Source of the DNA: a virus
Lineage: Duplodnaviria; Heunggongvirae; Uroviricota; Caudoviricetes
Virus record (IMG/VR): IMGVR_UViG_2703718828_000002
Location: 1 to 27,795 of that record
Direction: 5' to 3' (one strand)
Length of the DNA stretch: 27,795 bases
Shown here: one piece after another, positions 1 to 16,526 of the stretch
Numbering within the stretch: the stretch's first letter is position 1
Layout of the letters: each line of letters starts with the position of its first letter
Made by a program: the position numbers and the translations under genes
Notes under the pieces: generated by a model
What the model saw: the letters and a program-made list of their open reading frames with translations, nothing else
Told to the model about the DNA's origin: nothing
Databases searched by the model: none

Positions 1-120
1 ATAAGTTGGAGTCATTACCGCATAAATCAACTAATTGAAATTACTAGAAATTATTTAGAAGCAGTAATCAATGGTTTTGATGACTATTTAAATAGAACAT
101 TGTACAGGACCGTCGCTTAG
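1..120 (+). CDS. C-terminal 39 codons of an ORF entering from upstream of the window; unknown product; convergent neighbour of the first cytosine methyltransferase
   Basis: Frame is open from base 1 to TAG at 118-120 (ending ...NYLEAVINGFDDYLNRTLYRTVA*); AT-rich like the adjacent MTase; a hairpin plus T-tract follows 16 nt later. Absent from the ORF track only because it is under 60 aa in-window. Confidence 0.3.
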   Translation: MSWSHYRINQLIEITRNYLEAVINGFDDYLNRTLYRTVA

Positions 121-135
121 AAAATATACGATCCC

Positions 136-161
136 ATGGCGTGCAATTGCACGCCATTTTT
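136..161 (+). terminator. Rho-independent terminator between convergent genes
   Basis: Perfect 22-nt palindrome ATGGCGTGCAATTGCACGCCAT (136-157) followed by T-run 157-161; lies between the stop of the partial ORF (120) and the stop of the minus-strand MTase (160-162). Confidence 0.5.
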
Positions 162-1191
162 AATTTGAAAGGTGCTTGAGAATACTTTGCCCAATGATCT
201 CGCCTAACCTTACCGGCACTGCATTTCCTATCATTCTTGCTGTTGATGCAATGTCCAAACTAGATTCTTTATCGAAAAATAAATAATCTTTCGGAAAACT
301 TTGCAGTATCGCAGCTTCTCTTAAGGAGATTGCCCTGTTTTGTTCTGGATGACCAAAGCGTCCATTACCAAAACCATAGCATTGTGTGGTTATTGTTGGA
401 CTTGGTTCATTCCATGACATCCTGCCATAAACACTTTTATAAAATTTTCCAGACTCTTTTAAGTGACAAGGTGCTCTCAAGTGTATCGGCCAATCATGCC
501 AATCGCCTCCGGGCTTTGAAGCTTTAATACGCTCCATGTTCAAAGGGCTAAGAGTAGAACATTTATGAAGTGGATCGCGCTTGTCACATTCTCCAGCATT
601 TAATGATGGAAGGCCAAATATTGCATCCTTAACAGTTACGTAATTTTTTTTGTTATGAGTCGGATCAATTATAGAGATAGGACCTAATTTGGATGCTAAT
701 AATACTAAACGTTTACGAGTTTGCGGCATTCCATAATCTGGGCAAAAAACGATCTTATAATAAACATTATATCCATGGCCTTCAAGGTTGTTTATGAAAT
801 CTTTAAATATGTCTTGTGTCATCAAGCCTGGTACATTCTCCATCGTGACGATAGAGGGTTGCGTTTCATCAATTAACCGCGAAAAAGAATATAATAATGC
901 CCATTTGTCATCTTTTTTCTTGTTTTTAGTTCTTCCATATGTTGAAAACGGCTGACAAGGAGCGCATCCAGCTAAAATCGTTACATCTGAATCTTTAAAA
1001 TGACTGAGGATCTGTTCACCCTTCAAAACGGTTATGTCTTGATTGATAAAAACTGCATTATTATTAAATTCAAACGCAAAACGGCAGGTTTCTTCAATAT
1101 CATAACCTGCTACAACATCAATGCCTGATTGCTTTAACCCATGGGTTAGCCCCCCGGCTCCGCAAAATAAATCTACTGCTTTGATTTTCAA
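160..1191 (-). CDS. DNA cytosine-5 methyltransferase (Dcm-like m5C MTase), copy 1
   Basis: 343-aa translation carries m5C-MTase motifs: DLFCGAGG (motif I), GCAPCQPFS (catalytic PCQ, motif IV), ENV (motif VI), QTRKR (motif VIII), GNAVPV (motif X). Start codon is TTG (rc of 1189-1191). AT-rich relative to the integrase next to it. Confidence 0.9.
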   Translation of the reverse strand: MKIKAVDLFCGAGGLTHGLKQSGIDVVAGYDIEETCRFAFEFNNNAVFINQDITVLKGEQILSHFKDSDVTILAGCAPCQPFSTYGRTKNKKKDDKWALLYSFSRLIDETQPSIVTMENVPGLMTQDIFKDFINNLEGHGYNVYYKIVFCPDYGMPQTRKRLVLLASKLGPISIIDPTHNKKNYVTVKDAIFGLPSLNAGECDKRDPLHKCSTLSPLNMERIKASKPGGDWHDWPIHLRAPCHLKESGKFYKSVYGRMSWNEPSPTITTQCYGFGNGRFGHPEQNRAISLREAAILQSFPKDYLFFDKESSLDIASTARMIGNAVPVRLGEIIGQSILKHLSN

Positions 1192-1223
1192 AATAATTCT
1201 CTATCTATTTTCAATTTATGCCT

Positions 1224-1260
1224 ATTATAACAGCTTTCATAAGCAACATCGATGATTAGT
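1224..1260 (-). promoter_or_regulatory. Candidate extended -10 promoter for MTase copy 1
   Basis: Minus strand reads TGtTATAAT (rc of 1224-1232), a perfect -10 hexamer with TG extension; the -35 region is poor. Sits in the 72-nt gap between the integrase stop and the MTase start. Confidence 0.3.
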
Positions 1261-1263
1261 TAT

Positions 1264-2457
1264 TCACATCATTTCTTTGACTTTGCTTCCCCACCATTTC
1301 ATAACTACAGCACGTTGTTCAAGGTATGTGCTACGGTTGTAGGCTCTACGTACCTCATTTTTGTCTGAATGAGCTAAGCAAGCCTCAATAACATCTGCGT
1401 TAAAGCAAGCTTCATTCATCGCGGTACTTGCTATAGAACGTAAACCATGCGCAACGAGCTTTCCATTATACCCAATACGTTTCAGTGCAGCATTCGCCGT
1501 TTGGCTATTCATCGGTTGCTTAGGATCATTCCTACTAGGGAATACGTGTACACGATGGGCACTGATAGGTTTCATTACTTCAAGTACCTCAAGTGCTTGA
1601 GGTGACAAAGGAACAATGTGCTCGCGTTTTGCCTTCATCCGCTCTGCTGGAATTGTCCATAGCTTAGCCTCAAAATCTATCTCTGACCATTGAGTACCGG
1701 AAGCTTCTGAGGGCCGTACGATAGTCAGTAGTTGCCATTCAATCAGGCAGCGAGTCGGGACTGATAGGTTTGACATAACCAATGATCGCATTAACTTTGG
1801 CAGTTCTTCTGGCCGCAATGTCGGCATGTTTTGCTTTTTAGGTTTCTCAAATGCCATACCAACACCTGATGCTGGGTTGCCATCAATCAAGCCGGTGTTA
1901 ACCGCATAAATCATTATCTCGTTGATGCGCTGCACCAGTCGACGTACAGTCTCAAGCGCCCCACGAGCTTTGATTGGCTCAAGAGCTTCAACCAGTGTAC
2001 GGGCTTTGATTTGCTGAACGGGGATCTCACCGATGGCAGGGAATACATCTTTCTCCAGTGAGCGCCAAATGTCTTTTGCGTAATCAGGAGTAACGCTTTT
2101 GCTTTTGAGCTGGAACCAGTTAGCGGCTACTGTTGAAAAAATACTGTCCAGTGCGATTTGCTGCTGTTCCTCTGCAACTTCAGCTTGAATTTGTGGGTCG
2201 ATTCCGTTGGCTAATAAAGCAAGGTAATTCGCTCTTAACCCTCGGGCATCAGCAAGCGAAAGGGCGGGGAAAGCACCTAGCCCCATCATTGTCCGTTGTT
2301 TTGTCGCCGGACGTTGATAACGAAAGCGCCAGAGCTTTTTTCCACTGGTTTTCACTATCAGGAAAAGGCCATTGCCATCATGCAGCGTTAGATCCTTCTC
2401 TAACGCTTTAGCGCGAAGAACTTCGGTATTGGTCAGGGGGCGTGTTGTCCGTGCCAC
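1264..2457 (-). CDS. int: P4/CP4-57-type tyrosine integrase (ssrA-targeting IntA-like)
   Basis: 397-aa translation beginning MARTTRPLTNTEVLRAK...LWRFRYQRP resembles P4-family integrases as recalled; GTG start (rc of 2455-2457) preceded by AAGGAG 8 nt upstream; the ssrA 3-prime core lies about 185 nt upstream on the same strand. Confidence 0.85.
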   Translation of the reverse strand: MARTTRPLTNTEVLRAKALEKDLTLHDGNGLFLIVKTSGKKLWRFRYQRPATKQRTMMGLGAFPALSLADARGLRANYLALLANGIDPQIQAEVAEEQQQIALDSIFSTVAANWFQLKSKSVTPDYAKDIWRSLEKDVFPAIGEIPVQQIKARTLVEALEPIKARGALETVRRLVQRINEIMIYAVNTGLIDGNPASGVGMAFEKPKKQNMPTLRPEELPKLMRSLVMSNLSVPTRCLIEWQLLTIVRPSEASGTQWSEIDFEAKLWTIPAERMKAKREHIVPLSPQALEVLEVMKPISAHRVHVFPSRNDPKQPMNSQTANAALKRIGYNGKLVAHGLRSIASTAMNEACFNADVIEACLAHSDKNEVRRAYNRSTYLEQRAVVMKWWGSKVKEMM

Positions 2458-2818: not shown

Positions 2819-4339
2819 TTATTCAGGCTTTAATTTATTGATAATAGAATCTACCATTTTAATGCCTGCCTCATTGACTATGACTGAATTGACTACTCTA
2901 TCAAAATAGTCTTCTATATGGTGGGAAAATAGGAAAGCAGCACTTGATGGTTTTTTGTTCTTTTCAACTGCAGATTGCAAGACTTCATGAGGCGGAATTT
3001 TAAACCTTTTGCATGATGCAATGAGATATTCAAACTCTTCAAATGATAGACAAAAAATATTCTCTGTAGGGATATGATAGTTATGTTTAAACTTGTCATA
3101 TATCTTATTCATCTCATCTTTAGCATAAGTATTAGCTAGGATACTACCATTGCCTAAGAAAAGGTTTTTATATGTAATGCAAATGATATATGAGTTAGCC
3201 CTGAATGGAGCTATTATTCGCTCATTAGAGTATATTTCTCGATTAACTTCGTGAGATTGTTCGATTGCTTTTAATACCGATTTCTTTATTTTTCCTGCAA
3301 TATCCTCAGGGCGTAATGTTACCATGCCTTTTTGGTGTATCTCAACGCCTTTAGCATCAATGAAAATATTTGCCTCAGTATGTGGAATGAAATAATCAAC
3401 TACTTTATTATCTTTAGGTAGTCGTTCTTTAAGGTATTTTTCGTTATGAAAATCAATTTCGCTTTCTTTTAGTATTAATTCCAGTGCATTTTCAAATACA
3501 TTTCCAAAGCTATCCATGAACTTCTCGGCATCAGTTCTTCTTAAAAGATCATATATGAACGTCTGTATGCTTGTTGAAGTCAGTTGTGTGTGTATCTGAA
3601 AATACTCTGAACCTTTTTTTATTAATGGTTTTTCAAGGAAAGGTGATGATGAGTAGTATTCAAGCAAAGGTTTATCATAGGTTTTTGATTTGCAAAATGT
3701 AGATAGTTCATTGTAATTTATTGATATTGCATCAAGAAATTTCTCAATGGTATTTCTAGGAATGATGTCAAATAATATAGTAAATGTATCTACATTCATT
3801 TTTCTCACGGGATGCTCTTCTGTTATGTGAGTTATTAATATGTAAGATAGCTTAAGAAAGTCTTCTATAGATACATTCGTGATAGTAAAAAAACTTGTCT
3901 TTATTTTATGGTTTTTTTCAAGTTCTGAAAATAGAAAGACTTGTCTGCTAATTGTGTTTAGAGCGTCAATTTTCTGGTAGATTCCTTGTTGGTATAGATT
4001 ATTTCTAATGAAGAAATGCATGCCATTCTTCCTCTCAAGACCGATAGGAATAATGTTCAAGGTTTCATAAGTTTTTTGGAAGAGTTTTATTGCTTGATTT
4101 TTATCGAGGATTTTGAATTTTTTATTCTTGCCAGTTACTGACGCAGACCACTTTAGACATAAATTAACAATCCAAGGCATGTGTCGTAACATGTGGATAT
4201 TATCTTCAAATTTTTGTAAGTTATATTGCATACAGAATTCGATAAATAAATCAGGGGAATAACCTTGGATTTCTGAACGAATAGCATCCATTCTTAACTT
4301 TGCAACCGCATCAGATTGAATATCTAATTTTTGAATCAC
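2819..4339 (-). CDS. Hypothetical 506-aa protein; AT-rich cargo gene between the att core and the prophage integrase
   Basis: Long uninterrupted ORF with markedly lower GC than int; GTG start (rc of 4337-4339) with GGAG 9 nt upstream overlapping the int stop; no family recognised by eye. A weak D...DxK pattern (VVDYFIPHTEANIFIDAKG) is the only motif-like element noted. Confidence 0.65.
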   Translation of the reverse strand: MIQKLDIQSDAVAKLRMDAIRSEIQGYSPDLFIEFCMQYNLQKFEDNIHMLRHMPWIVNLCLKWSASVTGKNKKFKILDKNQAIKLFQKTYETLNIIPIGLERKNGMHFFIRNNLYQQGIYQKIDALNTISRQVFLFSELEKNHKIKTSFFTITNVSIEDFLKLSYILITHITEEHPVRKMNVDTFTILFDIIPRNTIEKFLDAISINYNELSTFCKSKTYDKPLLEYYSSSPFLEKPLIKKGSEYFQIHTQLTSTSIQTFIYDLLRRTDAEKFMDSFGNVFENALELILKESEIDFHNEKYLKERLPKDNKVVDYFIPHTEANIFIDAKGVEIHQKGMVTLRPEDIAGKIKKSVLKAIEQSHEVNREIYSNERIIAPFRANSYIICITYKNLFLGNGSILANTYAKDEMNKIYDKFKHNYHIPTENIFCLSFEEFEYLIASCKRFKIPPHEVLQSAVEKNKKPSSAAFLFSHHIEDYFDRVVNSVIVNEAGIKMVDSIINKLKPE

Positions 4340-4351
4340 AATAGGTCTCCA

Positions 4352-5365
4352 CTACAAATTATAAAGAGGATTTTTAGTCACCGCGTCTTCAAGGTGATCG
4401 GGCGAAAAGTGGGCGTAAATCATGGTCATTTTTATATCGGCATGACCCAAAATATCACGCAGTACCAGTATGTTTCCGCCGTTCATCATAAAGTGACTGG
4501 CGAATGTATGGCGAAGCACGTGGGTGCATTGGCCCTCCGGTAGGTCAATACCGGCCCGCTTTACTGCCCGCTCAAAGGCTTTTCTGCATGGCGTGAATAA
4601 CTTTCCTCTGTTTTTGGGGAGTTCATCATACAGATCCTGAGATATCGGCACAGTACGGTTTTTCTTGCCTTTTGTTTTTGTATAAGTAATTCGGTATTTC
4701 GATATTTGATGGCCCTGCAGATTTTCGGCTTCACTCCACCGTGCGCCAGTAGCCAGGCATATTTTTGCAATCATTAGTAAGCTAGGGCTTTGAGATTCAG
4801 CACATGCCGCCAACAGGCGCTTGATTTCGTCCGTGGAAAGAAAAGCCAGCTCACCTTCGGCAATTTTGAAGGTCGGAAGTCCTGCCAGCGGGTTTGGTGC
4901 TGACCAGTGTCCTAGTTTTTTTAATGTACCGAACACAGATGATAGATTGCGCTGTTCAAGGTTTACCGTGCGGGGCTTAACGGGCGACATCAGCGTGCCA
5001 TCTTCATTTCGCACTTCACCTTTTAGCCGTGCTTCGCGGTATTTCGTAAAGTCACCGGCAGTCAGCTCTGAAGCGATGGGATCGCCCAGACCATTACAGA
5101 TAATTCCAAGTTTCGCCATGAGTCGCTTGGGGTCTGCGAGTGTTTGACCATACAGGGAATACCACAGCTCAATTAATTCTGATAGGTGTCGCCGATCTTC
5201 CTTTTCTCCCAGCCAAGGTTTCTTGTTTACCTCGTCCATGGTGAAATTCTCAAACGCAATGGCTTCGCCTTTCGTCGCAAATTGTTTGCGTACGCGTTTG
5301 CCATCTCGCCCGTTTGGGTAGCATTCACATAACCACTTTCCGTTCGGCTGTTTTCTGATGGTCAT
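4352..5365 (-). CDS. int: P2/186-family tyrosine integrase
   Basis: 337-aa translation with C-terminal tyrosine-recombinase signature region (...HVLRHTFASHFMMNGGNILVLRDILGHADIKMTMIYAHF) consistent with R..HxxR..Y catalytic residues; ATG at rc 5363-5365 one nt after the repressor stop. Confidence 0.9.
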   Translation of the reverse strand: MTIRKQPNGKWLCECYPNGRDGKRVRKQFATKGEAIAFENFTMDEVNKKPWLGEKEDRRHLSELIELWYSLYGQTLADPKRLMAKLGIICNGLGDPIASELTAGDFTKYREARLKGEVRNEDGTLMSPVKPRTVNLEQRNLSSVFGTLKKLGHWSAPNPLAGLPTFKIAEGELAFLSTDEIKRLLAACAESQSPSLLMIAKICLATGARWSEAENLQGHQISKYRITYTKTKGKKNRTVPISQDLYDELPKNRGKLFTPCRKAFERAVKRAGIDLPEGQCTHVLRHTFASHFMMNGGNILVLRDILGHADIKMTMIYAHFSPDHLEDAVTKNPLYNL

Positions 5366-7723: not shown

Positions 7724-7950
7724 TGGCTGATGCAATGGATCTTGTACAGCAGCGCGTTGAAGAAGAACGCCAGCGCCATATCCGTGCTGCCCGTGCCAAA
7801 ACGCCGGGCGTGTCCCGCGTGCTTTGCATTGAGTGTGAAGCGCCAATTCCGCCAGCACGCCGCCGCGCCATTCCAGGTGTGCAGCTTTGCATTACCTGTC
7901 AGGAAATCGCAGAACTGAAAGGCAAACATTACAACGGAGGTGCTGTATGA
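7723..7950 (+). CDS. DksA/TraR-type C4 zinc-finger protein
   Basis: 75 aa with CIECE...17 residues...CITCQ (Cys-x2-Cys...Cys-x2-Cys) at the C-terminus. Confidence 0.7.
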   Translation: MADAMDLVQQRVEEERQRHIRAARAKTPGVSRVLCIECEAPIPPARRRAIPGVQLCITCQEIAELKGKHYNGGAV

Positions 7951-8804
7951 GCACCATCCTGAAATGGGCGGGAAATAAAACCGCCATTATGTCCGAACTG
8001 AAAAAACACCTTCCTGCTGGCCCGCGACTGGTTGAACCTTTCGCGGGTTCCTGTGCTGTGATGATGGAGACGGATTACCCCAGCTATCTGGTTGCGGATA
8101 TTAATCCTGATTTAATCAACCTCTATAAAAAGGTTGCCGCTGATTGTGAATCGTTTATATCTCGCGCCAGAGTTTTATTTGAGATCGCAAACAGGGAGGT
8201 GGCTTATTACAACATAAGGCAGGAGTTTAATTACTCCACTGAAATTACTGATTTCATGAAAGCGGTATATTTCCTGTATCTCAATCGTCACGGTTACCGT
8301 GGTTTATGTCGCTATAACAAGAGCGGGCATTTCAACATTCCCTACGGTAATTATAAAAATCCGTATTTCCCTGAAAAAGAAATTCGCGCATTTGCAGAAA
8401 AAGCCCAGCGGGCAACGTTTATCTGCGCCAGCTTTGATGAAACGCTGGCGATGTTGAAGGCGGGGGATGTGGTGTATTGCGATCCGCCGTATGACGGCAC
8501 GTTTTCCGGTTATCACACTGACGGCTTCACTGAAGATGACCAGTATCACCTGGCATCCGTTCTTGAACATCGGTCATCAGAAGGACATCCGGTCATTGTT
8601 TCTAACAGTGACACATCCCTGATCCGTTCGCTGTATCGCAATTTTACTCACCACTACATCAAGGCAAAACGCAACATCGGTGTGGCAGCTGGCGAGGGTA
8701 AATCAGCAACAGAAATCATTGCTGTTTCCGGGCCGCGCTGCTGGGTGGGATTTGATTATTCGCGTGGCATGGACAGTTCTGCCGTGTACGGAGTACGTGC
8801 ATGA
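7947..8804 (+). CDS. dam: DNA adenine methyltransferase (Dam-like, N6-adenine)
   Basis: N-terminal LKWAGNK AdoMet-binding motif and catalytic DPPY (VYCDPPYDG). ATG 7947 with GGAGG 6 nt upstream, overlapping the previous stop (ATGA); the track start at 7887 has no RBS. Confidence 0.9.
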
Positions 8805-11368: not shown

Positions 11369-11557
11369 ATGCAGGACTATTTTTTGGAGTCTTTGAAGCT
11401 CCAGCGCATTGATTTTTTTCTTAAGCTTGTAGCGGCCAGTGAGTGTAGTGATGAAGAGAAGGGGCTGGCTCTGCAGTGGGTTTCTGAATTGACTGATGAA
11501 CTCATGGCAAAAATCAGAACCCACGAATACAACCGCTCAATGGATGTCATCAGTTGA
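11369..11557 (+). CDS. Small hypothetical protein, first gene of the LexA-boxed module
   Basis: ATG 11369 with AGGAGGA RBS (11359-11365); 62 aa; its TGA stop (11555-11557) is embedded in the RBS of the next gene. Confidence 0.5.
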   Translation: MQDYFLESLKLQRIDFFLKLVAASECSDEEKGLALQWVSELTDELMAKIRTHEYNRSMDVIS

Positions 11558-11567
11558 GGTGACTTTT

Positions 11568-11801
11568 ATGCGCATTGAAATAATGATCGATAAAGAGCAG
11601 AAGATTAGCCAGTCTACCCTGGACTCTCTTGAATCCGAGCTTTACCGCAATCTGAGCCCCCTGTATCCCAAAGCGGTAATTCGTATCCGTAAAGGTAGCG
11701 CCAATGGTGTTGAACTGAGCGGGTTAAAACTGGATGAAGACAAAAAGCGAGTGATAGAAATCATGCAGCAGGTCTGGGAGGACGATAGTTGGTTACATTA
11801 G
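11568..11801 (+). CDS. DinI-family protein (SOS-inducible, possible Tum-like antirepressor component)
   Basis: 77 aa MRIEIMIDKEQ...IRIRKGSANGVELSGLKLDEDKKRVIEIMQQVWEDDSWLH aligns by eye with E. coli DinI (MRIEVTIAK...ISEILQETWESADDWF); RBS GAGGTGA 11556-11562. Confidence 0.7.
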   Translation: MRIEIMIDKEQKISQSTLDSLESELYRNLSPLYPKAVIRIRKGSANGVELSGLKLDEDKKRVIEIMQQVWEDDSWLH

Positions 11802-11842
11802 CGAACAGAATTTAGCCAAGCGATAAGTCATTCATCCAAGGG

Positions 11843-11865
11843 GGCGGCGTTTGCCGCACTTTTAT
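11843..11865 (+). terminator. Candidate terminator after the DinI-like gene
   Basis: GGCGGCG-TTT-GCCGC hairpin followed by ACTTTTAT; marks the boundary between GC-rich phage DNA and the AT-rich cargo block. Confidence 0.35.
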
Positions 11866-11998
11866 GGATGTTAGAACTAGTATTTTAGATCTTTATTTTA
11901 TTTAACATTTTGATTGTTATGCATTTTATTTGTTTTTGTTACTTTTGTCTGTAAAAATTTTGTAGGGTAAAATCATCATCGAAGTCGAGTTAAAATGA

Positions 11999-12007
11999 TG
12001 CTACAAT
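11999..12007 (+). promoter_or_regulatory. Candidate extended -10 promoter for MTase copy 2
   Basis: TGcTACAAT at 11999-12007, about 27 nt upstream of the TTG start; RBS AGGGAGGA at 12021-12028. Confidence 0.3.
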
Positions 12008-12034
12008 CCTTCAAGTATAGAGGGAGGACTTATT

Positions 12035-13075
12035 TTGATTAAAGTTGTTGATCTTTTTTGCGGAGCAGGTGGCTTAACTCATGGTTTGCAACGAGCAGGG
12101 TTGAATGTGGTTGCAGGCTATGATATTGATGCTACATGTCGGTATGCTTATGAAAAAAATAACAATGCTTTATTTGTGCAAAAAAGCGTCACTGAACTTG
12201 ATGAAGGGGAAATAAGTAAGCATTTTAAGGATGCATCAATTAAAGTTTTAGCTGGATGCGCTCCATGCCAGCCATTTTCTAGTTATACAAATACTGATAA
12301 ATCAGTAAAAAAAATAAAAGACCATCGATGGTCTTTATTGTATAGCTTTGCTAAGCAAATTCAATTATGTGCTCCAGATATAGTCACAATGGAGAATGTT
12401 CCAAGAGTTATTAACCACAAAGTTTTTAAAGATTTTGTGAAGACTTTAAAGTCTGAAGGGTATTTCGTTTGGTATGATACTGTATTTTGTCCTGATTATG
12501 GAATGGCCCAAAGCCGATCTAGATTAGTGTTATTAGCGTCCAAGTTTGGCGAGATAAAACTAATCCCGCCAACACATGATAAAAATAACTATAACACTGT
12601 ACGTAGCGTTATTGGTGGATTGCCTCCTATTGATGCTGGATCGAGTGATGAGAAAGACAGACTTCATTATGCTGCATCTTTATCACCATTAAATATGGAG
12701 CGAATAAAACATTCTAAGCCAGGTGGAACATGGAAAGATTGGCCTGAGTACTTACGGGCGTCATGCCACACCAAAGAATCAGGATCTTCTTACACTGCAG
12801 TTTATGGAAGAATGAGCTGGGATAAACTTGGCTCTACAATTACAACACAATGTATAGGTTTTGGTAATGGTCGATTTGGTCATCCAGAACAAAATAGAGC
12901 TATTAGCCTAAGAGAGGCAGCTTTGCTTCAATCTTTTCCTCTAACTTATGAATTTTGGCCAGCTGAAGTAAAAGTTGAACTCAGGAATGTTGCACGACTG
13001 ATTGGTAATGCTGTGCCGGTGAGGCTCGGTGAAGTTGTTGGGCAAAGTATTATTGAACACCTTAAAAGAAAATAA
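12035..13075 (+). CDS. DNA cytosine-5 methyltransferase (Dcm-like m5C MTase), copy 2, paralogous to copy 1
   Basis: 346 aa with DLFCGAGG, GCAPCQPFS, ENV, QSRSR and GNAVPV motifs; collinear by eye with the 160..1191 protein along its whole length; TTG start with strong SD; AT-rich. Confidence 0.9.
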   Translation: MIKVVDLFCGAGGLTHGLQRAGLNVVAGYDIDATCRYAYEKNNNALFVQKSVTELDEGEISKHFKDASIKVLAGCAPCQPFSSYTNTDKSVKKIKDHRWSLLYSFAKQIQLCAPDIVTMENVPRVINHKVFKDFVKTLKSEGYFVWYDTVFCPDYGMAQSRSRLVLLASKFGEIKLIPPTHDKNNYNTVRSVIGGLPPIDAGSSDEKDRLHYAASLSPLNMERIKHSKPGGTWKDWPEYLRASCHTKESGSSYTAVYGRMSWDKLGSTITTQCIGFGNGRFGHPEQNRAISLREAALLQSFPLTYEFWPAEVKVELRNVARLIGNAVPVRLGEVVGQSIIEHLKRK

Positions 13076-13099
13076 AAAGGGCGAATCGCCCTTTTTTTT
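13074..13099. terminator. Bidirectional terminator shared by the convergent MTase and GHKL genes
   Basis: A-run, GGGCG-AAT-CGCCC hairpin, T8 run; overlaps both stop codons (13073-13075 and 13098-13100). Confidence 0.5.
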
Positions 13100-15056
13100 A
13101 GATACCATCAACAATTTTCATTATTCGTGCAGCATCATCTTTTTTGCTCTGATACTCAGAGTATGCTTGTTTGGATTGTATTATAAGATCGCTATATGTT
13201 AATACCTTTGCATTTATAGATTGTAGCTGTGAGCGAATATAATTATCTCCACTTCCGTCATAACCTTTGCCGACAAGAAAAACTACATCTATCGGTGGTA
13301 TTTTTCCGGCAGGGCAACTATTTGGGTTGTTTCTAAACCACTGCTCTGTGGCAACAACATATTTCCTTCCTTGACCTACTAATGCCAAAATATCAGGATA
13401 TACATTTGGTCTTTTCATTTCAATGATGACGTGTTTACCTGAAACGGTTTTGAAGGCTATATCAATTCTTGCACCACTTTCAGCGTCAGGGTTAACCTCT
13501 TTCAATTCCTTAGTCAGGGTTTGTTCCATAACTGTAGAACCAGTAACCCTCTCCCATGATGGGTCTAACAGCCATAAGTGGTCATAAAGATATTTTTGTA
13601 CAGCCTTCTCTAACTCATTGTCATCGGTGATTTTTTGAAATTTCTCAATAACTTTCAATCGCTGTGATGTAATCTCATAAAAAAGGCTTGCCTCAATATC
13701 ATTTACAGAAGCAAAAACCTCCCTAAAATGTTCTGAGTTTAAATCGCTAATTTTATCTAAAGCCTCAAGGTTATCTTTTATTCTTAATCTTTCAAAAGCA
13801 AGAACTGTATTTTTTAATACGGTTTTTTTTGCAATTTTCTGGTTTTCTTCATCTCCAGAAAATCTAAATGTGTTAATTTTGCCTAGTAATTTTTCGGCGC
13901 TGTTTCTTTCATGTTTTGACATGGAATCAAGCCAATCACTTACAGCAGGTGAAGTTTTTTTAACCTCGCTAAGACCTTTTGCTCTTCGCCATTCATCCCA
14001 TTCTTTATCTATTTTTTGTAATGTCCGTTCTAAGAAACCCTTAATCACAGGATAGCGTGGATCATTCTGCTGTAATTTCTGTCGGGATGAGGTTGCCATG
14101 TCAGGTTTTTCATTTTCATCTAAAAAATCTGCGACAAGTTCCCCTACTAAATAATTTGTAAAAACCTTTGCGCTTCCGAATTCAAGCAATATATCTTCTT
14201 CAAATACCCGCCCATTTGATATTACGGTTATCGTGTTGTTAGATATTTCAGGGTCTTTTTTAAGTTGAGATGGTTTCTCAACACTTCCTACATAACCAGT
14301 AATGAAATAATCTACGCCTTCAAAAGATAATTTGTTATCTAGAAGGCTTTTTTTAGAAAGATTTTTGCAAGATTTTACTCTTGCGGGATCTGAACTACCA
14401 AACTCCCATAAAAATTCAAGATCTGAAAGGAAGTCTCTATCTTCAGTAGTTATCTCAGTGTCATTGATTTTAACTATAAAATCATGACCAGGACCAATTA
14501 TGCTAAACCGTCTGGCAAGTCTTTTTCTTAGATAGGTCTGAGTTCTATCAATGGATTTTTTTAAATCCATAAGAACTATTGTCGTCCCTATACTAAAGTC
14601 TTTCGGAACATTAATAATATTTGCAACATATTGTTTACTGCTTTTTATACAGCGTTGCAATTCATCAACGTCAACTTCAAATCCCTGAGGCGTTTGGCCA
14701 ATTTTGTGAGAAAATACTTGGATTTTGTTAGCTAATGAAAACATTGCTAATTTACCAATGCCTTTTCTACCCATGACTTGTCGTTGTAATCCATCACTTT
14801 TATACCTTCCACTTTCTCTTCTGGCATATCCAACTTTTAGGAATTTATTAATGATGTCATCTTTTGACATTCCATGTCCATCATCTTTAATTATTACCTT
14901 TTCATTTTCAACATCTAGAGTGATGTCTACATTTTTAGCATCCGCATCCCAAGCATTTGAGATTATTTCAGTTAGAACAGCTGGTGTGTTAGAGTAAAGA
15001 CTCATACCTAAATGATTCAATACATTCAGGTCTATTTTAATTTCGAAATCGGACAT
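13098..15056 (-). CDS. GHKL-superfamily ATPase (MORC/MutL/Hsp90-like Bergerat fold) with C-terminal PD-(D/E)xK-like motif; candidate effector partner of MTase copy 2
   Basis: 652 aa. N-terminus carries N-box EIISNAWDADA, G1 box DDGHGM and G2 box GRKGIGKLAMFS; C-terminus carries RIDIAF...12 residues...IIEMKRP (D...ExK). ATG at rc 15054-15056 with AAGGA RBS; AT-rich. Confidence 0.8.
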   Translation of the reverse strand: MSDFEIKIDLNVLNHLGMSLYSNTPAVLTEIISNAWDADAKNVDITLDVENEKVIIKDDGHGMSKDDIINKFLKVGYARRESGRYKSDGLQRQVMGRKGIGKLAMFSLANKIQVFSHKIGQTPQGFEVDVDELQRCIKSSKQYVANIINVPKDFSIGTTIVLMDLKKSIDRTQTYLRKRLARRFSIIGPGHDFIVKINDTEITTEDRDFLSDLEFLWEFGSSDPARVKSCKNLSKKSLLDNKLSFEGVDYFITGYVGSVEKPSQLKKDPEISNNTITVISNGRVFEEDILLEFGSAKVFTNYLVGELVADFLDENEKPDMATSSRQKLQQNDPRYPVIKGFLERTLQKIDKEWDEWRRAKGLSEVKKTSPAVSDWLDSMSKHERNSAEKLLGKINTFRFSGDEENQKIAKKTVLKNTVLAFERLRIKDNLEALDKISDLNSEHFREVFASVNDIEASLFYEITSQRLKVIEKFQKITDDNELEKAVQKYLYDHLWLLDPSWERVTGSTVMEQTLTKELKEVNPDAESGARIDIAFKTVSGKHVIIEMKRPNVYPDILALVGQGRKYVVATEQWFRNNPNSCPAGKIPPIDVVFLVGKGYDGSGDNYIRSQLQSINAKVLTYSDLIIQSKQAYSEYQSKKDDAARIMKIVDGI

Positions 15057-15121
15057 ATCCTTTCCTTGCTGAAGCTTGTAGGCAGAGCTTAAGCCTACTC
15101 ATGTGAACAAAATCCCTCGAA

Positions 15122-15150
15122 ACTAAACATTGATTTTGACTAAATGTCAA
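15122..15150 (-). promoter_or_regulatory. Candidate promoter for the GHKL gene overlapping a 15-nt palindrome
   Basis: Minus strand TTGACA (rc 15145-15150), 17-nt spacer, TTTAGT (rc 15122-15127); TTGACTAAATGTCAA (15136-15150) is a perfect 5-5 inverted repeat that includes the -35. Confidence 0.35.
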
Positions 15151-15296
15151 ATGTAGATGTTGCCTTGTGTAATGCATATCTATGCTGCATGAATACGCAT
15201 GATCTCTTAAGGATCGCTTTTGTTGAAGCACGCCAGAATTGGCGGGCTTTTGCTTATGTCATGCATGTGCATGAAAACTACTACATGAAGCGGGCA

Positions 15297-15315
15297 GGCG
15301 TGGCGGGGATACGAG
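15297..15315. other. Candidate cos site (cohesive-end sequence of P2/186 type)
   Basis: GGCGTGGCGGGGATACGAG matches the first 13 nt of the 19-nt cohesive end recalled for P2/186 (GGCG[A/T]GGCGGGGAAAGCA...); located just beyond the portal gene end, as cos is in P2. Confidence 0.45.
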
Positions 15316-15403
15316 CGCGCGCAGCGGGGTAAAATGGCCAAAATCCGGCGCAGCCTCTGGCCCGCTGGCGGCCTCATTTTGCGTAGGGGGGATAAATGTC
15401 AGG

Positions 15404-15441
15404 ACAAAAAGAAACGCCCCGCAGAATGCTGCTGGGGCGTT
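15404..15441 (-). terminator. Rho-independent terminator after the portal gene
   Basis: Minus strand AACGCCCCAGCAG-CATT-CTGCGGGGCGTT followed by TCTTTTTGT; about 36 nt downstream of the Q stop. Confidence 0.5.
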
Positions 15442-15476
15442 GTGAGAATTGGTCAGTTATTGATGTTGTGAGTATG

Positions 15477-16526
15477 TCAGCCTCGTTTGCTCTTAAGTCC
15501 TAAGTCATAGGCTTCAAAACGGATCACCTCTTCACCCAGCCAGTTGTTAAGCTCCTGCAGTCGCTTTTGCAGTGGCATCAGTTCATTGCGGACGAAAACA
15601 CGGCTCGCCTTTTCCACATCACCGAAGCCACCAGTGTTGTTGGGAATGATACCCATCATTTGCGGCGGCACACGATGCGCCGCCATCATGTCGTCCCGGC
15701 TTACGTTCTTGATGTTCAGAAACTCATCCTTCGCCGCGACTTCTGATAACGGGATAATCTGAAGTCCGTCCTTTTTGCCGTTAGGAGAGTACATAAACAG
15801 ATTGCGGAAGTTACCTGGTCCTTTGGCGCTTTTCATTGCATTGCGGAGGTTGTTCACATCCTCCTGGTTTTGTGCGGCGTCGGTCATGTACATGATGAAG
15901 CCTGCATGACTGCCGTTGATGTAATACTTCCGGCGGAACAGCGTGGCGGACTCGTTGAGCAGGGCTGACGGAATGGCAGAAAGATAACCGGGCAGGCCGT
16001 AGATCTCCTGGTTGATGTCCGGTTCCATCAGATGAAAAATGCTGCCTTTCGCGAACTGATACGGCTGGGTTGTCATACCGTATTGCACAAACCAGTAGGT
16101 ATCCAGGTCTAACCCGCGTCGGGTGTATTTTGCCAGAGCAGGCTCTAGGGCGATAACTTCACCGAAGCGGTTCGTGCGTTTCTCCAGGTAGGCGTTACCA
16201 AATACCAGATAGTCCTGCACAAAACGTGAAAAAGCCTGCTGGCTGAGCAGCGGGTGAGGGATGTAGGTGCTGGTCAGAATGTTGCATTTCACCGCAATCG
16301 GTGAGCTGTGATGCACGGCGGCGCGGAAGGTTCGCGCCAGTCCGTCGAAACTCACAGGCGGCTCATACCAGCGATCCATCTGTACGCATTCCACATAGTC
16401 CAGCAGTTCACGGCGGTCCAGAACAGGAACGGGATCGCCGAAGCTGAATGCTTCGGCTGTAGTTTGACTTTTAAGCTGGATCTGTTTCGTCGCCGCAGCG
16501 CGGTTCTTCTTACTCTTTCCCATCAA
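15477..16526 (-). CDS. Q: Portal protein (P2 gpQ)
   Basis: 349 aa; extended collinearity with P2 Q as recalled (...AFSFGDPVPVLDRRELLDYVEC...WYEPPVSF...AVHHSSPI...). ATGA overlap with the terminase gene. Confidence 0.9.
   Translation of the reverse strand: MMGKSKKNRAAATKQIQLKSQTTAEAFSFGDPVPVLDRRELLDYVECVQMDRWYEPPVSFDGLARTFRAAVHHSSPIAVKCNILTSTYIPHPLLSQQAFSRFVQDYLVFGNAYLEKRTNRFGEVIALEPALAKYTRRGLDLDTYWFVQYGMTTQPYQFAKGSIFHLMEPDINQEIYGLPGYLSAIPSALLNESATLFRRKYYINGSHAGFIMYMTDAAQNQEDVNNLRNAMKSAKGPGNFRNLFMYSPNGKKDGLQIIPLSEVAAKDEFLNIKNVSRDDMMAAHRVPPQMMGIIPNNTGGFGDVEKASRVFVRNELMPLQKRLQELNNWLGEEVIRFEAYDLGLKSKRG

Follow-up and report, generated by a model that had tools for sequence, protein, structure and literature searches.

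A convergent gene pair in the cargo interval of a P2-like prophage

The window examined here is a 27,795-nucleotide stretch of Caudoviricetes DNA (positions 1 to 27,795 of IMG/VR record IMGVR_UViG_2703718828_000002) that contains a P2-like prophage. Our subject is a pair of convergent genes inserted in that prophage, one encoding a C5-cytosine (5-methylcytosine, m5C) DNA methyltransferase (MTase) and the other a 652-amino-acid (aa) protein that joins a GHKL ATPase to a C-terminal nuclease domain. Comparison with named families indicates that the pair is very probably a two-gene Type II restriction-modification (R-M) system belonging to the HgiDII/BbrUII family and serving as lysogenic-conversion cargo in the hotspot between gpA and the portal gene, with GTCGAC as the most likely site. 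The locus is made up as follows.

11568..11801, + strand: DinI-like gene of the phage backbone, left flank of the insert (Pfam DinI 2.1e-22; 'DinI-like family protein' in the RefSeq annotation of E. coli PEC1011)
11801..15167, no strand: AT-rich cargo insert with the R-M cassette (guanine-cytosine (GC) contrast and breakpoints against Klebsiella phage Kp4845-2)
12035..13075, + strand: C5-cytosine DNA methyltransferase of the M.HgiDII clade, 346 aa (Pfam, TIGR00675, PADLOC, motifs)
13098..15056, - strand: BbrUII/HgiDII-family Type II restriction endonuclease (REase), 652 aa (NCBIfam NF050001.1, PADLOC REase_II, named homologs)
15297..15315, + strand: P2-like cohesive-end (cos) sequence, GGCGTGGCGGGGATACGAG, right flank of the insert
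15477..16526, - strand: portal gene, beyond cos

The insert of about 3.4 kb, between the DinI-like gene and the cos/portal region, stands out from the prophage by its base composition, with a GC content of 0.34-0.41 across 11501-15000 against 0.52-0.60 in the surrounding backbone. Its limits follow from a comparison with Kp4845-2, whose flanks are 94-96% identical to the window: the match ends at 11800 and restarts at 15168, which therefore defines the cargo as 11801-15167, and Kp4845-2 has just 76 bp between the two breakpoints. The cos sequence GGCGTGGCGGGGATACGAG agrees with P2 cosR (GGCGAGGCGGGGAAAGCAC) at 14 of 19 positions, and GAAGCGGGC precedes both. The original prediction, made from the letters of the window, had described an AT-rich block of this size in this place, and the limits it gave, 11870-15240, lie near those measured here. 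Among 5,426 complete E. coli genomes, 2 have that block at 100% identity, and it was not found in 50,697 deposited phage records; in E. coli PEC1011 it is part of a P2-like prophage, with the DinI-like gene on one side and the portal gene on the other. In phage P2, old and tin occupy the corresponding interval, and the P2 gpA-gpQ interval is an anti-phage hotspot that averages 3.2 kb in length and shows 1,650 arrangements of genes in E. coli (Rousset et al. 2022, PMC9122126), in agreement with the predicted placement of the block in the slot for variable cargo between gene A and cos.

The two proteins match models of a named Type II restriction-modification family

Against NCBIfam NF050001.1 ('BbrUII/HgiDII family restriction enzyme', an equivalog model) the 652-aa protein scores 752 bits, where the cutoff is 550, and aa 4-651 align with positions 1-658 of the 659-position profile. 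The PADLOC model REase_II (PDLC03419) matches it over its full length at 9.4e-91, and the BbrUII/HgiDII family name is also given to close homologs in, among others, Serratia, Pantoea, Vibrio, Aeromonas and Shewanella. Its convergent neighbour matches Pfam DNA_methylase over the full length (4.7e-57), TIGR00675 dcm (118.8 bits) and PADLOC MTase_II (PDLC03378, 2.8e-87), and contains m5C motifs I, IV, VI, VIII and X. By these matches the 346-aa gene product is a C5-cytosine methyltransferase with all its parts, as had been predicted. We place its start at the TTG at 12035, which is preceded by a GGAGGA ribosome-binding site; the RefSeq start lies one codon upstream, at the ATT at 12032.

REase_II and MTase_II genes side by side are what PADLOC defines as a Type II R-M system. 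Together, the NF050001.1 match, the two PADLOC assignments and the named homologs make the pair a named Type II R-M system and not an unclassified one. The original prediction had proposed an R-M-like defence module in which the MTase guards self DNA, and this core stands, backed by the family model, the PADLOC calls and the conserved MTase pairing described below. What has to be given up is the description of the locus as unclassified and outside the standard R-M types: the PADLOC run returned R-M defence under an established class. The statement that no Type II endonuclease could be recognised also falls, since that role belongs to the 652-aa protein, a member of a named Type II endonuclease family. 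The locus can already be named with NCBIfam and PADLOC, and the finding mostly corrects an over-reading.

Two other classifications were considered and rejected. Membership in the MORC family proper was set aside after a regular-expression search of the 652-aa protein in which the GhXhhpXXRhl motif of the S5 domain was absent; the predicted HATPase_c_3 N-terminus was found, and its MORC-type character was not. A Type IV, methylation-dependent reading was dropped on account of the tight linkage to a cognate MTase with a conserved target recognition domain (TRD), the opposite of Type IV behaviour.

Domain structure of the endonuclease

R.HgiDII has been described as a two-domain Type II REase with a GHKL domain, its C-terminal domain being left without a fold assignment (Orlowski & Bujnicki 2008, PMC2441816). 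We divide the REase of the window, which is unusual in joining an ATPase to a nuclease, into three parts.

14487..15056, - strand: aa 1-190, GHKL (Bergerat-fold) ATPase domain (Pfam HATPase_c_3, invariant motifs, Foldseek)
13632..14486, - strand: aa 191-475, beta-rich transducer-like middle module with a long helical linker (AlphaFold2 model, Foldseek; without a Pfam match)
13101..13631, - strand: aa 476-652, PD-(D/E)xK nuclease domain of Shedu (SduA_C) type (predicted structure and residue invariance)

The N-terminal part matches Pfam HATPase_c_3 over aa 26-133 (2.1e-23) and contains the N-box (ExxxNxxD), G1 (DxGxG) and G2 (GxxGxG) motifs of the GHKL superfamily, represented by EIISNAWDADA at aa 30, DDGHGM at 58 and GRKGIGK at 96. 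Residue invariance was assessed in an alignment of 42 homologs with identities down to 43%, and E30, N34 and D37 of the N-box, D58, G60 and G62 of the G1 box and G96-K102 of the G2 box are unchanged in all of them. In the AlphaFold2 model of the whole protein (mean predicted local distance difference test score (pLDDT) 78.9, reaching 80-94 over aa 200-430), Foldseek finds the N-terminal and middle domains of Hsp90, GRP94 and TRAP1 across about 390-450 columns with E values down to 1.7e-14. The ATPase therefore carries a transducer-like middle module, as do Hsp90 and MutL. This module, aa 191-475, has no Pfam match and is our inferred candidate for DNA binding and sequence recognition. Among the structures closest to the nuclease domain are cleavage modules, those of FokI and BspD6I, which do not themselves read sequence.

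A search of the PDB by sequence with the whole REase returned just weak GHKL matches to Hsp90/HtpG, and a PDB search with a profile of the C-terminal domain gave nothing meaningful, so that a comparison of folds was needed. A separate model of aa 462-652 (pLDDT 82.5, predicted template modelling score 0.78) was set against solved structures by two structure-comparison methods. The best Foldseek match is E. coli SduA (8ps5_A, E 5.1e-7, probability 1.00). The model has the alpha-beta-beta-beta-alpha-beta core of PD-(D/E)xK nucleases together with their conserved D...(D/E)xK residues, which lie in the motifs RIDIAF (aa 530) and IIEMKRP (aa 544); E483, D498, E511, D532, E546 and K548 are invariant in the 42 homologs, and E483/D532/E546/K548 form the catalytic E-D-ExK set. 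On the strength of this predicted structure, the HgiDII family's C-terminal domain can now be placed as a PD-(D/E)xK nuclease nearest to Shedu SduA, and a domain unassigned in 2008 thereby obtains a fold from two structure-comparison methods and residue invariance. The three Bergerat-fold motifs and the D...ExK nuclease C-terminus that had been read from the letters are both borne out: structure prediction and Foldseek recovered an Hsp90-like GHKL fold and an SduA-like nuclease domain.

Position of the family relative to Shedu

The similarity to SduA brings in an alternative explanation, in which the 652-aa protein would work alone as an ATP-dependent nuclease of Shedu type I-D (VcSduA/paraMORC3-like). 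It would then respond to some property of phage DNA that is not an unmethylated site, the MTase being independent or accessory. VcSduA, the Shedu type I-D/paraMORC3 protein of the Vibrio cholerae WASA lineage in which E27A (ATPase) and K557A (nuclease) each abolish defence (PMC12137116), has the same architecture and defends alone when expressed in E. coli without any MTase. In addition to the Foldseek match, Pfam SduA_C (PF14082) detects 11 of the 42 family members, the best at 1.8e-6. The nuclease domain of the window, however, reaches only 0.0037 and 17.9 bits against SduA_C, below the Pfam cutoff of 27, the PADLOC Shedu models do not match the REase, and the protein's family takes its name from two characterised Type II enzymes that are sequence-specific. 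Nor is this a single-gene system, with an m5C MTase adjacent both here and in most related loci (see below).

A search of 1.84 billion representative proteins with a profile of the nuclease domain gave only 711 matches (E <= 1e-3), and the full-length ones are almost all 640-690 aa long, with the domain at the extreme C-terminus. By these sequence matches the HgiDII-type family is compact, with a fixed architecture, and is a branch separate from Shedu.

The endonuclease is paired with a methyltransferase across bacteria and archaea

The linkage of the two genes was surveyed in 80 loci with REase relatives 35-44% identical to that of the window, drawn from many bacterial phyla and from archaea, with MTases located by tblastn. 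The loci sort as follows.

60 of 80: MTase 46-59% identical to that of the window, within 500 bp of the REase homolog
56 of these 60: MTase upstream on the same strand, with gaps of 8-93 bp
3 of these 60: convergent, as in the window
1 of these 60: MTase downstream on the same strand
4 of 80: a more distant m5C MTase adjacent
2 of 80: a close MTase homolog within 2.5 kb
3 of 80: a remoter or weak MTase match, 1.9-5 kb away
4 of 80: locus ending at a contig end
7 of 80: no tblastn MTase match

An m5C MTase is thus immediately adjacent in 64 of the 76 evaluable loci, mostly in tight arrangement, which is the signature of a cognate pair; the pairing predicted from the single locus recurs in its close form in the 60 loci listed first. 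The seven loci without a related MTase nearby at the tblastn threshold speak for the stand-alone Shedu alternative. Against it, five of the seven were scanned, and one has a different m5C MTase while two have Vsr upstream; the adjacent MTase in the evaluable loci is usually 8-90 bp upstream on the same strand. Weighing these points with the scores above, we consider a stand-alone Shedu nuclease very improbable and retain the R-M pair.

In some loci without the usual MTase the REase homolog stands beside genes for Vsr, GmrSD_N, PLD-type or HNH nucleases (for example L042 5277-5960, L078 5314-5844 and L033 7982-9226); these surroundings are defence islands with other m5C-related functions. A 3.17-Mb metagenome-assembled genome labelled 'uncultured Cenarchaeum sp.' (OY282369.1; loci L028, L037, L040, L048 and L072) holds at least five copies of the REase family, most of which have no close homolog of the MTase in their vicinity. 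Such a copy number is unusual for a restriction enzyme, and a solitary or diversified use is possible.

Sequence specificity

HgiDII is said to be an isoschizomer of SalI, and BbrII of Bifidobacterium breve UCC2003 is reportedly a SalI neoschizomer. As cited in PMC5867850, M.HgiDII is an experimentally characterised m5C MTase for GTCGAC (Dusterhoft & Kroger 1991). When the MTase of the window is aligned with 59 partner MTases from the surveyed loci, the per-column identity to it is 0.41-0.61 in the TRD region (approximately aa 181-280) and 0.44-0.64 in the catalytic core, with 31 insert columns in 377. A TRD as conserved as the core fits what would be expected under a common specificity, though as evidence it is indirect. 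No MTase named M.HgiDII was among the best 120 MTase homologs, which bear generic names only. From these comparisons, the recognition site of the pair is most likely GTCGAC, as in the two characterised members.

The enterobacterial clade might instead be a true HgiDII-family R-M system that reads another sequence. Its REase shares just 35-44% identity with the 80 relatives sampled in other phyla, Type II specificities can shift within families, the relation to M.HgiDII comes from family models, and GTCGAC is not depleted in the window. On the other hand, the NCBIfam model is an equivalog and was matched well above its cutoff, and the alignable TRD is not what such a shift would lead one to expect: m5C MTases of differing specificity normally have TRDs that cannot be aligned. 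We regard a different site as rather unlikely and keep GTCGAC as the probable target.

Several points weigh against our interpretation of the pair. RefSeq names the REase just 'ATP-binding protein' in each of the two complete E. coli genomes with the block (e.g., NZ_CP142035.1), a label which also means that the defence content of such prophages is under-annotated. Membership in the family comes from the NCBIfam model, and the case for the copy in the window is made by sequence comparison and predicted structure. HgiDII was reportedly characterised in ordinary restriction buffers without ATP; if so, ATP may not be strictly needed in vitro, and the ATP-gating model set out below would need revision. 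For M.BbrUII the literature is in conflict, PMC5829577 giving an N6-adenine methylase and PMC5867850 a characterised 5mC MTase homologous to M.HgiDII. Finally, the window contains 2 GTCGAC sites where 3.8 are expected, a count that is uninformative either way.

A proposed methylation-gated, ATP-driven mechanism

Type II R-M systems are known to work by marking: the DNA of the host, with any prophage in it, is modified by the MTase, and incoming DNA that has no such mark is cut by the REase. We start from what is observed of this pair, namely its family membership, both domain folds, the invariance of the ATPase and nuclease catalytic residues, the linkage of M to R and the position in the hotspot. 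In the present case the MTase would methylate its site wherever this occurs in the host and the prophage, and the 652-aa endonuclease would cleave incoming DNA that lacks the methyl mark, so that the lysogen would be protected from other phages. For the endonuclease itself we propose, by analogy, that binding of ATP dimerises the GHKL domains, that the clamp then closes on DNA, and that the two nuclease domains are thereby paired for double-strand cleavage. The ATP-gating step is suggested because VcSduA, which has the same architecture, needs both the ATPase Glu and the nuclease Lys (PMC12137116).

In order to rationalise this architecture more generally, we hypothesise that HgiDII-family enzymes are methylation-gated relatives of Shedu type I-D, in which an ATP-driven GHKL clamp licenses a Shedu-type nuclease and the cognate m5C MTase, rather than the sensing of DNA ends or another feature, discriminates self; we offer this as a tentative analogy that may well prove wrong. 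If true, the family would form a class of 'Type II' enzymes that depends on ATP, and would bridge R-M and Shedu in evolutionary terms. The whole architecture being common to VcSduA, in which the ATPase is needed, raises the question of what role the conserved ATPase has in a sequence-specific Type II enzyme.

Gene layout and putative expression signals

The MTase gene on the + strand and the 652-aa open reading frame (ORF) on the - strand converge with a gap of 22 bp. The following sites accompany them.

13074..13099, no strand: bidirectional intrinsic terminator common to both genes, AAAAAGGGCGAATCGCCCTTTTTTTT
11945..11973, + strand: promoter-like site upstream of the MTase, TTGTCT-17-TAAAAT (consensus scan, 9/12 matches; consensus match only)
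15122..15150, - strand: promoter-like site for the REase, TTGACA-17-TTTAGT (read directly from the sequence; ribosome-binding site AAGGAAAGGA before the ATG)

The terminator hairpin has a 10-bp stem (13074-13096) with an A-run before and a T-run after it, at a dG of -12.7 kcal/mol and a z of -3.27, and none of 200 shuffles was as stable. With an A-run and a T-run on its two sides, termination is possible from both directions, as the original prediction of two convergent genes sharing one bidirectional terminator had it. The promoter assignments are tentative, since the scan found 10 promoter-like sites where shuffles give 12.7, i.e., no enrichment; the scan demands an A at position 2 of the -10 hexamer, which puts the REase site outside its reach. 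A palindrome, TTGAC-ATTTA-GTCAA (15136-15150, - strand), overlaps the -35 TTGACA of the putative REase promoter and could be a candidate operator that times REase expression. The cassette contains no gene for a controller (C) protein.

Distribution of the cassette among P2-family prophages

The same convergent cassette lies between gpA and the portal gene in an E. coli prophage of the P2/Cox type, with an REase 78% identical, and in CI-type P2-family prophages from sequencing-run assemblies, with an REase 91% identical and annotated as a protein in Serratia marcescens. A P2-like prophage of V. cholerae has an REase 62% identical next to a CI gene. With copies at 78%, 91% and 62% identity in P2-family prophages, the cassette is a recurrent cargo of the family. 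The V. cholerae homolog P0045 was considered as VcSduA itself and rejected, as the catalytic Glu of P0045 falls near residue 45 and its location is a P2-like prophage and not VSP-II.

This mobility bears on a further alternative, that the cassette is mainly selected as an addiction (post-segregational killing) module stabilising the prophage or itself, phage defence being incidental. Selfish and addictive behaviour is well established for Type II R-M systems, and the cassette is compact, AT-rich, horizontally acquired and rare (2/5426 E. coli genomes), and moves between differing P2-family backbones. Yet the slot is a documented anti-phage hotspot, whose P2 residents old and tin exclude other phages; addiction is also compatible with defence, and nothing in the sequence separates the two roles. 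We judge it improbable that addiction is the main role, and continue to view the cassette as defence cargo.

Related Klebsiella P2-like phages (Kp4845-2, locus L082 2732-5653) have no R-M cassette and carry another insert of about 2.9 kb between cos and portal, whose counterpart in the window is the stretch of about 240 bp at 15322-15565. The Klebsiella insert thus lies beyond cos, whereas that of the window lies before it, and two cargo sub-sites therefore flank cos.

Other defence and methylation genes in the window

The left end of the window (1-2457) is a P4-like satellite integrated in tandem next to the P2-like prophage, with a P4-type integrase at 1264..2457 (- strand) and, in its own cos-proximal hotspot, a second m5C MTase of 343 aa at 160..1191 (- strand). 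The satellite MTase is 62% identical to the cargo MTase over the whole length, TRD included. Across a common hairpin terminator (approximately 133-158) it converges on the C-terminus of a 'MAE_28990/MAE_18760 family HEPN-like nuclease' (1..117, + strand); in matching E. coli genomes (7/5426) a DUF262 protein precedes the HEPN-like nuclease, and the Sid, Psu, Delta and primase genes of the satellite follow. The MTase clade therefore also occurs with other nuclease partners, and satellite and helper prophage each possess an M.HgiDII-clade MTase with a different nuclease partner. This hints that the M.HgiDII-type clade is a module for marking self that can be exchanged between several types of effector.

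Next to the P2-type integrase (4352..5365) lies an AT-rich ORF of 506 aa (2819-4339, - strand) that encodes a GapS1 family anti-phage protein, with 428.5 bits against NCBIfam NF047931.1 (cutoff 320) and no match in Pfam or PADLOC v2. Going by this model, the GapS1-family gene is a second defence cargo of the same prophage, at the integrase end. A Dam-type N6-adenine methyltransferase gene (7947-8804, + strand; Pfam MethyltransfD12 1.2e-76) lies just upstream of gpA, and the 27.8-kb window contains three DNA methyltransferase genes in all.

Comparison with known systems

The closest named relatives are HgiDII of Herpetosiphon and BbrUII/BbrII of B. breve UCC2003, whose family equivalog the REase of the window fits end to end. 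Like R.HgiDII, it has an N-terminal GHKL domain and a distinct C-terminal domain, and in both systems the partner is an m5C MTase, that of HgiDII targeting GTCGAC. The cassette of the window differs in its hosts and setting, being found in Enterobacterales and carried in a P2-like prophage hotspot, and in its layout: the genes are convergent with a common terminator, whereas the usual family order is M then R on one strand (56/60 paired loci).

Iyer, Abhiman & Aravind (2008, PMC2292703) linked GHKL ATPases of the MORC/paraMORC type with R-M operons that encode cytosine methylases and nucleases of the restriction fold. Those operons and the cassette of the window have in common a GHKL domain with a middle module, a cytosine methylase and an E-D-ExK restriction-fold nuclease. 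Unlike them, the cassette lacks a superfamily II helicase, a Vsr and a nuclease gene of its own, the last because the nuclease is fused to the GHKL protein.

With P2 old and tin and other hotspot cargo the cassette has in common its slot, from the replication gene region to cos/portal, and its size, 3.4 kb against the 3.2-kb average, and the logic of lysogenic conversion and defence is alike. The proteins and the mechanism are unrelated to those of P2: OLD is a nuclease of the ATPase-TOPRIM kind and Tin acts against T-even phages, while in the cassette methylation would tell self from non-self.

VcSduA, compared by its published description, presents the same order of a GHKL ATPase, a clamp-like middle part and a C-terminal PD-(D/E)xK domain of DUF4263/SduA_C type. 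Key residues also occupy similar positions, the catalytic Glu being E30 in the window and E27 in VcSduA, and the Lys of the ExK motif K548 and K557, respectively. VcSduA acts alone without a methyltransferase, whereas the family of the window is tightly linked to an m5C MTase. The family is thus built like VcSduA, yet it is outside Shedu as now defined because it has no PADLOC Shedu match, an SduA_C score below the cutoff and an obligate-looking MTase partner.

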